From: a virus
Taxonomy: Duplodnaviria > Heunggongvirae > Uroviricota > Caudoviricetes
Virus record (IMG/VR): IMGVR_UViG_2703718771_000002
DNA length: 11,449 bases
Strand: one strand, 5' to 3'
The notes under the pieces were generated by a model that saw nothing but the letters and a program-made list of their open reading frames with translations, was not told where the DNA came from and ran no database searches. Position numbers and translations under genes: made by a program. This document shows positions 3,249-4,603 of the stretch, piece after piece (within the stretch, counting starts at the first letter, position 1; each line of letters opens with the position of its first letter).

Positions 3249-3622
3249 AGAGGATAGATGGAGTTTAATGGCCATGAGTATCAAGCGGTCAAAAAGAAGT
3301 TCATCTATTCATTGAAAGCATAAGGCCATCTGAGTATATCCGTAATGATCTGGATATTGTCTATAACATCAATGACCGGACGATAGATATCGGTGAGCAG
3401 CGTCCTGTATGGCAGGGTGAGGCAGGTGAAAAAACGTCCTGCCATCAACAAGAATCAAGTGCATCCGCTCTCTGGACAGATGGAAAATTTATTGGATGCA
3501 AAAAGATATGAAATAACACCTGTATAGCACGGAGCTTTCTCTGACCGATGCACTTGAAGTTGTTAGGGCTGACCCAGCCTGCTGTTTCTTTAGGTAAGAG
3601 AAAAGAGATTTAGGAGATGAAA

Positions 3623-3649
3623 GGTCGCAGAGGTGCGGCCTTTTTTATT
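3623..3649 (+). terminator. Intrinsic terminator downstream of cI
   Basis: Stem GGTCGCA / TGCGGCC (one G-U pair), 4-nt loop GAGG, then TTTTTTATT. Confidence 0.6.
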
Positions 3650-3688
3650 GAGAGTGGATCTTGAACGGAAATTCTCAAGACTTGAGTC

Positions 3689-3717
3689 TTGCATGCAAAT
3701 CAATTCCTGGATAAACT
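3689..3717 (+). promoter_or_regulatory. Candidate sigma70 promoter for the 3750-4271 gene (TTGCAT, 17 bp, TAAACT), with an overlapping inverted repeat
   Basis: -35 TTGCAT 3689-3694, 17-bp spacer, -10 TAAACT 3712-3717. A perfect 7-bp inverted repeat CAAGACT-tg-AGTCTTG (3676-3691) overlaps the -35. Hexamers were chosen by eye only. Confidence 0.3.
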
Positions 3718-3749
3718 CGATCTGAGTCAATAACTTAGAGAGAGAGCAA

Positions 3750-4271
3750 ATGGCAAAGTCAAACGTTAGCGTGCAGGCATTCAAGGACTTCCTTGAAGAG
3801 CTTATGTCGCTGAACATAATGAAGGAGGCCACCGCTCGAAATTTAAAAAACTCATCCGCTCGCCTCTTAACGGTAGTCCAAGAAGAGGAAATGGGTGATG
3901 TTACTCAGCTTGATGTGAATGAGCTTGCCGAGCGATACATCAACGCAACTGAGCCGAAGCCTAGCGACAGCAGCATTACTGCATATAAAAGCCGCATGGA
4001 AAGTGCAATCAAAAAGTTTGTAGCTTTCCAGTCTGGTGAAGAAATCCCATACACTCCGATTGACAAAGAATCCAGTGAGGAAAAAGATTTGACTGGCGAA
4101 CCAACAAAAGTCGAAGGCAAGGCTAATGCACTTCATACCTATGATCTTCCAGTAGTTCTTCGACCTGAATCAGGGGTTACAGTAACGATTAAAGGCATTC
4201 CTAACGATATCACAAACGAAGAAGCCGAACGCATCTCTTCAATTCTGAAGGTTTACGTTCGGCCTCAATAA
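3750..4271 (+). CDS. Hypothetical protein, 173 aa, acidic and apparently soluble; cargo gene in the rexAB-equivalent position between cI and pL
   Basis: Clean 522-nt ORF, ATG with purine-rich leader (GAGAGAGAGCAA), no overlapping long ORF of comparable quality. Preceded by a terminator and promoter-like hexamers and followed by a terminator. I recognise no family from the sequence. Confidence 0.65.
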   Translation: MAKSNVSVQAFKDFLEELMSLNIMKEATARNLKNSSARLLTVVQEEEMGDVTQLDVNELAERYINATEPKPSDSSITAYKSRMESAIKKFVAFQSGEEIPYTPIDKESSEEKDLTGEPTKVEGKANALHTYDLPVVLRPESGVTVTIKGIPNDITNEEAERISSILKVYVRPQ

Positions 4272-4444
4272 TGCAAAAGCATTCAGCACAATGTCCAACT
4301 CCCCAGTCCGACATTGATGCTGTTTAACCAGAGCCTCCAAAAGGAGCCCTTGTTAAGGTACACAATATTTGCGATGTAACCTTAGCGCGTCTGGTACATT
4401 TTTTCAAGCGGTTGTAGGGCTGCCGCCAATATGAGAAAACACAG

Positions 4445-4567
4445 ATGTCTACATACAATTTGAATGACCAATTCGATCGAGAAGTTCATGTGAATGCCTA
4501 TGAACGGATAAGGTATGGAAATCTTGAACATGTGTGTGAGCATTATCGCTCAAGGCCACACCGCTAA
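4445..4567 (+). CDS. Possible small ORF (40 aa) ending 8 nt before the 4575-4602 terminator stem
   Basis: ATG 4445, translation MSTYNLNDQFDREVHVNAYERIRYGNLEHVCEHYRSRPHR, stop TAA 4565-4567. No convincing SD. May be non-coding 3-prime UTR or an sRNA. Confidence 0.2.
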   Translation: MSTYNLNDQFDREVHVNAYERIRYGNLEHVCEHYRSRPHR

Positions 4568-4572
4568 TCATC

Positions 4573-4603
4573 AACCCGGCCTCCATGCCGGGTTTTCTTT
4601 TCC
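4573..4603 (+). terminator. Intrinsic terminator closing the cI-side transcription unit before pL (timm-like)
   Basis: 8-bp stem AACCCGGC / GCCGGGTT with 6-nt loop, followed by TTCTTTTCC. Confidence 0.65.

Follow-up and report, generated by a model that had tools for sequence, protein, structure and literature searches.

The stretch of DNA analysed in the current work (virus record IMGVR_UViG_2703718771_000002; 11,449 nucleotides (nt), referred to throughout as the window) comes from a lambdoid prophage of the Shiga-toxin type, of which it represents the immunity and early region, and is given in the orientation of cI and pL. Our work focuses on a cassette which occupies, on the cI strand, the interval between cI and pL, according to both the map of open reading frames (ORFs) and the VT2-Sakai annotation, and which comprises a gene for an acidic protein of 173 amino acids (aa), a structured RNA and a small gene. 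The original prediction had described this locus as a self-contained, single-gene unit with a tail, placed between two terminators in a slot equivalent to that of lambda rexA-rexB. Every element it listed was recovered at or near the position assigned to it; the tail, however, was found to hold a structured RNA and a small gene under selection, so that the unit is a protein, RNA and small-protein cassette. The features of the interval are as follows.

3258..3591, + strand: DUF3024 pseudogene, a remnant of neighbouring cargo and not part of the cassette
3623..3649, + strand: terminator 1 (left boundary hairpin), at the end of the cI/DUF3024 transcript
3676..3722, + strand: promoter-like region, predicted from reading the sequence
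3676-3691: inverted repeat CAAGACT-TG-AGTCTTG, overlapping the -35 hexamer
3689-3694 and 3712-3717: predicted -35 hexamer TTGCAT and predicted -10 hexamer TAAACT, with 17-nt spacing
3750..4271, + strand: gene A, 173 codons, encoding the 173-aa acidic protein (ECs1184 / H0093 / Sp5 ORF23)
4284..4426, + strand: structured RNA of approximately 145 nt between both genes, supported by covariation
4284-4322: RNA helix P1
4327-4332/4390-4395: closing helix of the RNA
4334-4344: hairpin of the RNA
4351-4358/4380-4387: inner helix of the RNA
4399-4404: U-run
4408-4412/4422-4426: RNA helix P4
4445..4567, + strand: small gene H0092, encoding a 40-aa His/Cys-rich hydrophilic protein
4573..4603, + strand: terminator 2 (right boundary hairpin), found by scan, just before OL/pL

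The block from 3250 to 4610 is 99.9% identical to the corresponding DNA of VT2-Sakai (Sp5), Nil2 and about 40 other phages carrying Shiga toxin genes (Stx1/Stx2), is present in 235 of 5426 complete E. coli genomes, and shows an identity of at least 99% in 234 of 236 E. coli records. The VT2-Sakai record names the 173-codon gene H0093 and the 40-codon ORF H0092, and the large gene is known as ECs_1184 (ECs1184) on the Sakai chromosome and as ORF23 of Sp5. An uncomputed impression that the block was AT-rich did not survive calculation: its GC content of 0.439 differs marginally from that of the window (0.467), cI (0.456) and N (0.466), and a distinct AT-rich island was ruled out by base composition.

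The order protein, RNA, small ORF, terminator was retained in all of the 25 distinct loci that were read (33-100% protein identity), the distance from the large gene to the small ORF being 149-174 nt. Over a 25-codon core of six small-ORF orthologues, derived from E. coli, Salmonella, Cronobacter, Yersinia and metagenomes, the rate of non-synonymous substitution (dN) was 0-0.09 and that of synonymous substitution (dS) ranged from 0.3 to saturation, which points to a coding sequence under strong purifying selection. The small ORF, which had previously been listed as a possible one, is on these values a genuine gene, and its interpretation as a chance ORF was rejected on the basis of dN/dS. Relative to Salmonella phage Oslo it carries eight nucleotide substitutions, of which seven are synonymous, and the linker of the upstream gene has diverged from that of Oslo to about 50%. 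The small-protein consensus reads VHVNAYERIRNGNLEHVCEHYRSRPHxW, its terminal Trp being missing from the window and Sakai copies through an 8-nt deletion, and H0092 matches PHROG 21154 (function unknown; E 2.3e-8). Both cassette products are of the hydrophilic, soluble type (grand average of hydropathy of H0092, -1.35) and neither is a membrane protein.

Three types of small ORF occur among the relatives, namely the 40-44-aa type present in the window, a 47-aa Cys-rich type (MATTICxKCGNSC...VFPIPVCGCDEI) and a 57-aa very basic type (...RWVKCRFRKARAKAGTPDSERKILDAHAYGYKCWSFPVRTKH; PHROG 33859). Searches of Pfam, NCBIfam and PADLOC returned no significant match for the small ORFs, and their matches among the PHROGs are to families of unknown function. 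A Proteus locus (L006) and a second locus (L031) share an identical C-terminal domain of the large protein and carry different small ORFs, which argues that the small gene is an interchangeable part of the cassette.

E. coli and Salmonella phages share approximately 96% identity over the 173-nt intergenic stretch, which is better conserved than the protein gene. Analysis with RNAalifold of an alignment of eight window-group sequences (A6) yielded five helices with 37 pairs, in which 96.9% of the alignment cells were paired, as compared to 23-50% when the 3' partners were slid by 1-3 columns, and compensatory changes were seen in nine pairs, as compared to 0-2 in the slid controls, where both here and below the structures were derived from the same alignments that served for the pair counts. 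The covariation score of A6 was matched by none of 500 shuffles, and the window sequence is predicted to adopt the same fold on its own (minimum free energy -52.2 kcal/mol, z -3.94). At the same place in distant relatives, ahead of the ribosome-binding site of the small ORF, an RNA of like topology is found, consisting of a hairpin, a closing helix around inner helices, TAGCGG, an A/U tract, CAAG and a last hairpin. An alignment of 13 such sequences (A5) gave 36 pairs (91.2% paired versus 38-52% when slid) with 14 covarying pairs, and a covariance model (R1) built from these 13 sequences recovered 12 further loci at 99-171 bits.

Model R1 fails to detect the window RNA even with filters off; therefore, the homology of the subtypes rests on topology and on motifs compared by eye, among which unpaired TAGCGG and CAAG are invariant across the subtypes, and the suggestion that the subtypes constitute one family is weaker than the covariation within each group. 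Conservation of many G-U pairs indicates that the fold belongs to the sense strand. No match was obtained with Rfam 15 at E <= 1 over 4272-4444, nor over the equivalent spacer in six relatives. An attenuator formed by the A/U tract that follows the closing helix was considered and dropped, because the U-run in this tract is not conserved across relatives. The known small RNAs (sRNAs) AsxR and AgvB of enterohaemorrhagic E. coli (EHEC) phages map near stx and the Q region and not to this locus (PMC4104026). As a separate observation, the 14-nt loop of the first RNA hairpin (4296-4309) is reverse-complemented between two sets of relatives, reading CAACTCCCCAGTCC in the window, L031 and L067-L070, and AGACTGGGGAGTTG in phage Oslo and L039; this looks like a hairpin-mediated inversion that leaves the stem intact.

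The 173-aa protein had been described as belonging to no recognisable family. This holds insofar as no family of known function was found, but the protein is matched end to end by PHROG 2602 (function unknown) and can be assigned a recombinase core-binding fold. Its best Pfam match, Phage_int_SAM_1, has an E value of 0.047, which is under the Pfam thresholds, and NCBIfam and PADLOC gave no significant match. An AlphaFold2 model based on an alignment of 83 sequences (mean predicted local distance difference test score 88.9) contains a four-helix bundle (residues 8-94), a low-confidence linker without regular secondary structure, and a beta-hairpin plus helix (130-168); a Foldseek search with this model retrieved nothing significant (best E 0.26), the C-terminal domain being matchless. 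Of the parts of a tyrosine recombinase, the protein has the core-binding (SAM-like) domain and lacks the catalytic domain with its R-K-H-R-H/W-Y residues, as it ends at residue 173 without a Phage_integrase match; therefore, it is not a recombinase.

A word-indexed search recovered 44 close relatives of the protein, all from Enterobacterales, and a profile search against 1.84 billion representatives recovered at least 654 clusters (defined at 50% identity) at E <= 0.001. Among the best 150 of these 654 matches, the proteins are approximately 110-240 aa long, mostly 160-200 aa, and nearly all are matched over their full length. A scan of species-representative genome contigs recovered a single locus, because such representatives rarely carry this prophage. 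Residues Y79, R82, P151 and E158 are invariant family-wide, T28, F14, D50, F90, P134, R138, D153, A159 and I162 are nearly so, and the large protein is acidic across the family, with an isoelectric point (pI) of 4.75-5.14.

Terminator 1, like terminator 2 of the intrinsic kind, consists of an 18-nt hairpin (GGTCGCAGAGGTGCGGCC, 3623-3640, -10.9 kcal/mol) followed by T6 (TTTTTTATT), and was not picked up by a simple consensus scan for terminators. Terminator 2 has an 8-pair stem with six G-C pairs, followed by TTCTTTTCCT, is nearly identical to the tM terminator of phage 933W, and lies where the VT2-Sakai record annotates, after H0092, a 'rho-independent terminator for the pRM transcript'. The predicted promoter matches 7 of 12 consensus positions, which is not compelling by itself and explains its absence from the output of a consensus scan. 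Its position and -10 hexamer are nevertheless conserved in relatives down to 43% protein identity; Salmonella, Cronobacter, Yersinia and Proteus relatives show an identical arrangement, equally far from the start codon (TTGCAA-17-TAGAAT in Proteus; TTGATC-17-TAAACT or TAGACT at the 43%-identical loci). The window carries GATC at 3657-3660 and 3719-3722; the 130 nt ahead of the large gene contain, in the 25 loci, a mean of 1.96 GATC sites, against 0.1-0.6 expected from the density in the respective locus, and a GATC lies just 3' to the -10 hexamer in the window, in Proteus and in six other loci. This enrichment of Dam sites, about four-fold or more across the family, may hint at methylation- or replication-coupled control.

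Since terminators flank it on both sides, the promoter-like site is conserved, and O157 strain 9234 tolerates an IS1203 insertion just before the left hairpin (~3618-3622), between cI and the intact cassette, the unit looks transcriptionally autonomous. In this respect the description as a self-contained unit stands, the part that falls being its restriction to a single gene. Three loci (L031, L067 and L068) have an extra mini-unit, absent from the window, between the boundary hairpin and the cassette promoter, approximately 70-130 nt upstream of the gene, consisting of a promoter-like TTGACG...CATATACAGT and then a hairpin, AACCCTCtGATGAGGGTTTTTTTG; it possibly specifies a very short RNA.

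Both boundary hairpins recur in 933W, where a RuvC-like gene, the stk kinase gene and a 54-codon ORF lie between them. The left boundary (DUF3024 plus hairpin, 81% nt identity) and the right terminator are homologous in the two phages while the cargo has been exchanged, which argues that the cI-pL interval is a cargo-swap site. In 933W the left hairpin likewise follows DUF3024 and its stem sequence is conserved, but the T-run is lacking, and homology with the window stops inside this hairpin, as at a mosaic breakpoint. Homology with Salmonella phage Oslo (85% identity) starts at the left hairpin and extends to the second terminator, and the same hairpin precedes the large gene in Salmonella (Oslo), Proteus and Serratia relatives. 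The label of a rex-equivalent slot is therefore fair, in the sense of a cargo slot on the lysogenic strand between two hairpins shared with 933W. With morons the cassette has in common a predicted promoter of its own (the conserved promoter-like site) with terminators on both sides, and a patchy presence, in that 933W holds different cargo between the homologous hairpins and the cassette itself is found in another slot elsewhere; a distinct base composition (GC 0.439 versus 0.456-0.467 for its neighbours) was not found.

The 370-bp interval between cI and terminator 1, initially taken to be an ORF-free spacer, is in fact a decayed DUF3024 gene, and its reading as a regulatory spacer (3250-3620) was rejected on this ground. 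Positions 3250-3643 share 81% nt identity with the region directly 3' of cI in 933W and in many other Stx and P22-like phages, the intact counterpart of which encodes a 113-aa DUF3024 protein. DNA alignment with 933W revealed two 1-nt deletions in the window copy (after 3295 and after 3431), and tblastn with the 933W protein gave three fragments in three frames at 80-83% identity. The intact 933W protein matches the PADLOC defence candidate PDC-S43 (E 4e-41), and the dead gene is the only recognisable defence-candidate homologue in the interval. An intact DUF3024 gene lies directly upstream of the cassette in Proteus, in L069 and in phage SH2026Stx1.

Among the closer relatives, the cassette is flanked by an S24 repressor gene and N, and an intact DUF3024 gene often immediately precedes it. 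It is not confined to the rex slot: in the more distant relatives it occupies a nin-like region beside dinI, with DUF1627/Lar/DUF977/methylase genes on one side and dinI/DUF1367 on the other, and roughly half of all loci are found outside the immunity region. The accompanying repressors vary by locus (Sakai type, Oslo, Proteus, Serratia, SH2026Stx1). The Stx1 phage SH2026Stx1 (L074, 1258-2670) displays a full, ancestral-looking arrangement in the order cI, intact DUF3024, hairpin, 177-aa homologue, a third RNA subtype whose first hairpin is terminator-like, a 44-aa small ORF of the type of the window, and terminator.

Deletion data exist for the Sakai copy of the cassette. Working with a K-12 lysogen, Mondal et al. 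deleted almost every Sp5 gene in frame; ORF23 (ECs1184) and ORF21 (ECs1180) proved undeletable, the deletion of ORF23 being judged lethal, and it was suggested by these authors that both are needed for maintenance of lysogeny (PMC5155283). ORF21, the only other Sp5 gene reported as undeletable (PMC5155283), is the 83-codon gene at 5331-5582 of the window, downstream of N (H0090/ECs_1180; no Pfam match), though it belongs to the pL operon, which should be silent in a lysogen. In the RNA-bound proteome of uninduced Sakai, ECs1184 was detected with an enrichment just short of significance (false discovery rate 0.065), and in direct crosslinking it was labelled no better than green fluorescent protein (GFP) (PMC7618764). 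Therefore, the protein is made in lysogens and is not a strong RNA binder.

Natural variation was seen in three O157 genomes (strains 9234 and NE92, loci L071 and L072 taken together, and strain YB14-1, locus L073). Besides the insertion in 9234, NE92 has a deletion bounded by insertion sequences that runs from ~3618 to gam and takes with it the cassette, pL, N, ECs1180, cIII and kil; therefore, the gene is dispensable when the rest is lost as well. In YB14-1 a deletion of 3602-3736 has removed both terminator and promoter, so that the gene now follows cI directly. As read from their sequences, the three variants fit a gene that must stay expressed, that is normally independent of pRM, and that is lost only together with its neighbours.

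We take the cassette to be an apparently autonomous, prophage-expressed accessory module in a repressor-proximal slot. As to its function, we tentatively favour an addiction or abortive-infection-type regulator-effector module, a reading we regard as possible though held with less than even confidence. A weak sigma-70-type promoter with an inverted repeat and GATC sites would drive the cassette from the prophage, giving a single transcript that would start at about 3724 and, both genes presumably being co-transcribed, end at the terminator at about 4603. This transcript would encode the acidic 173-aa protein, with its recombinase core-binding-like domain and small beta-hairpin/helix domain, and the 40-aa His/Cys-rich, putatively toxic protein, with the folded RNA of ~145 nt acting as 3' untranslated region (UTR) of the large gene and leader of the small gene. 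In the lysogen, the 173-aa protein would keep the RNA/small-protein effector encoded downstream from being active or from doing harm, so that the cell would be harmed if the large protein were lost or inactivated alone.

This regulator-effector reading is suggested by the failure of the single-gene deletion while loss of the whole region is tolerated, and by the pairing of an acidic large protein with a small protein that is basic in two of the three types (pI 8.7-10.8), an acidic antitoxin and a basic toxin being the usual charge pattern. It is further suggested by the preferred slots, which in other prophages hold abortive-infection and toxin-antitoxin genes; the region of the K-12 Qin prophage upstream of the DUF1367 gene, for instance, carries relBE and hokD. 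Abortive-infection genes are also the cargo of the cI-pL slot in lambda and 933W (PMC3564112). The conserved order of the parts, the detection of the large protein without induction, and the variants 9234 and YB14-1, in which the gene would stay expressed, speak for it as well.

Several observations weigh against it. The failed deletion of ORF23 is a negative result from one study and possibly technical, because ORF21, a gene of the repressed pL operon, gave the same outcome; the NE92 deletion also takes pL, N and kil and does not separate removal of a toxin from removal of lytic genes. The small protein of the window is near neutral (pI 6.9) and not basic, and hhalign comparison of the three small-protein types gave probabilities below 1%, i.e. 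no homology. Near-identical C-terminal domains of the large protein, and likewise the RNA subtypes, are found in free combination with the small-ORF types, and such interchangeability argues against specific protein-protein neutralisation, at least as judged from the loci compared. The two genes are 173 nt apart with a structured spacer, unlike the adjacent genes of typical type II systems. Binding to RNA or DNA would be unusual for an acidic protein, and the labelling at GFP level points the same way. Finally, no significant match to toxin or antitoxin families was obtained for the large protein or the three small types in Pfam, NCBIfam, PHROG functions or PADLOC.

The failed deletion was read by the authors who reported it (PMC5155283) as a sign of lysogeny maintenance. 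In such a reading the 173-aa protein would stabilise the repressed state, for example by blocking repressor cleavage or an antirepressor or as a DNA-binding co-repressor, with RNA and small protein as tuning elements; its loss would induce the prophage and thereby make the deletion lethal. The gene adjoins cI on the lysogenic strand, YB14-1 has it joined to the end of the cI transcript, and NE92, being without pL, N and kil, fits equally well. Precedents exist in MrpR and in Hex of phage 434, which is encoded with the repressor on the pRM transcript and prevents RecA-mediated repressor cleavage (PMC3564112). The cassette nevertheless accompanies repressors that differ from locus to locus, and about half of its loci are outside the immunity region, so that a shared target in the switch is unlikely; moreover, most lambdoid phages do without it, and the protein, besides being acidic, has no counterpart of the second domain of MrpR/SroF. 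We consider lysogeny maintenance, the main rival reading, unlikely. Plain superinfection exclusion or defence was the proposal of the original prediction; the cassette would then block incoming phages without harm to its own host, and the resistance to deletion would be a technical artefact. The slot is shared with lambda rexAB and 933W stk, the products of which exclude or abort superinfecting phages (PMC3564112), cargo is exchanged there between conserved boundary hairpins, the neighbouring DUF3024 is a PADLOC defence candidate, and the unit is autonomous, terminator-insulated and, as noted, nearly invariant in E. coli. On the other hand, none of the 5027 models of PADLOC-DB 2.0 matched either cassette protein or their distant relatives, no enzymatic or membrane effector domain was found in either protein, and the failed deletion is left unexplained. 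We regard exclusion alone as decidedly unlikely.

Least probable of all, and in our view improbable, is an RNA-centred module, i.e. a lysogenic-conversion element in which the folded RNA is the main product and the proteins are accessory, the RNA being either a processed, 3'-UTR-derived regulator of host or phage transcripts or a leader that senses a ligand or protein. The unpaired TAGCGG and CAAG stay invariant across subtypes while the small ORF is swapped, the structure is strand-specific with many G-U pairs kept, an A/U-rich tract follows the closing helix, and regulatory RNAs are known to arise from EHEC prophages (PMC4104026). Against this, no published sRNA was found to map to the locus, the flanking locus tags are not mentioned in the supplements of the Hfq-crosslinking study (PMC4104026), the A/U tract is not a conserved U-run, and both flanking ORFs are under clear constraint at the protein level. 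A bolder extension of the regulator-effector reading is that the cassette typifies a novel class of prophage module that would be widespread among temperate phages, those of Enterobacterales and others, and in which a core-binding-fold protein and a structured RNA gate interchangeable zinc-finger-like mini-proteins as an addiction or abortive-infection switch that may sense Dam methylation or replication through the promoter GATC sites; taken as a whole, we judge this to be rather unlikely.

Comparison with known systems places the cassette apart from each of them. It resembles lambda rexA-rexB in its position between cI and OL/pL, its location on the cI strand, its expression in the lysogen and its dispensability for lytic growth. 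Unlike rexAB, however, it lacks sequence or fold similarity (no RexA/RexB homology of either ORF in Pfam, PHROG, NCBIfam or PADLOC) and a membrane (ion-channel) component, and while rexAB is expressed with cI by read-through from pRM, the cassette has a predicted promoter of its own behind a terminator, and a structured RNA. The 933W kinase aborts infection by HK97, according to work cited in PMC3564112, whereas the window has an unrelated protein-RNA-small-protein cassette and merely a dead DUF3024 gene. The 434 Hex protein is likewise an accessory protein of the immunity region made in the lysogen, which excludes phages and stabilises lysogeny, but it overlaps cI, is translated from the pRM transcript, has no homology to the cassette, and is without an associated RNA or small gene.

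Likeness to type II/V toxin-antitoxin systems is seen in the two co-directional genes behind one predicted promoter with an inverted repeat and without a conserved terminator between them, in the acidic upstream protein with an N-terminal fold of nucleic-acid-binding type, and in an upstream gene that is reportedly undeletable alone while loss of the whole region is tolerated (in NE92, also without pL-N-kil). The 173-nt structured spacer and the three unrelated downstream types, which do not co-vary with the upstream protein, are unlike such systems. As compared to SPbeta MrpR/YopR and phi3T SroF, which are ~320 aa in length with a core-binding and a degenerate catalytic domain, the 173-aa protein is about half as long, acidic, and without a catalytic or pseudo-catalytic domain.

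The annotation of the large gene and its resistance to deletion were already known. In the literature searched, no prior account was found of the tripartite architecture, the structured RNA, or the reality and interchangeability of the small gene, nor of the fold assignment, the family size, or the boundary hairpins of the swap site, and the chance that the mechanism has not been described before is substantial. In E. coli O157:H7, the Stx2a/Stx1 phages carry the cassette within their immunity region; it is nearly invariant among the E. coli genomes that have it, and the undeletable large gene is now seen as one part of a conserved protein-RNA-small-protein unit. If it were indeed an addiction or abortive-infection switch, it would matter for how stably toxin-converting prophages are kept and how they spread. 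With its good covariation support, the RNA qualifies as a candidate for a new structured-RNA family, and the two conserved boundary hairpins record the exchange of cargo at the rex/stk slot.

The genes neighbouring the cassette in the window are the following.

823-1644, minus strand: replication O-like gene
1825-2121, minus strand: cII
2263-2478, minus strand: cro
2595-3248, + strand: cI (helix-turn-helix plus S24 peptidase), laid out as in the VT2-Sakai annotation
ending at 5272, + strand: N, laid out as in the VT2-Sakai annotation

At 10911-11042, a weak RsmY-like covariance-model match was obtained (18.4 bits, E 0.61, far under the gathering score), which is most likely a chance match driven mainly by a terminator-like hairpin. 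The early-left recombination genes of the window (6335-8419) are unlike those of Sakai Sp5 and stand in for Exo/Bet/Gam.

6335-7042: Rad52/22-family annealing protein, differing from Sakai Sp5
7043-7549: single-stranded DNA-binding protein (SSB)
7558-8106: Rv2179c-like 3'-5' exonuclease
8123-8419: P22 Abc2-like anti-RecBCD protein

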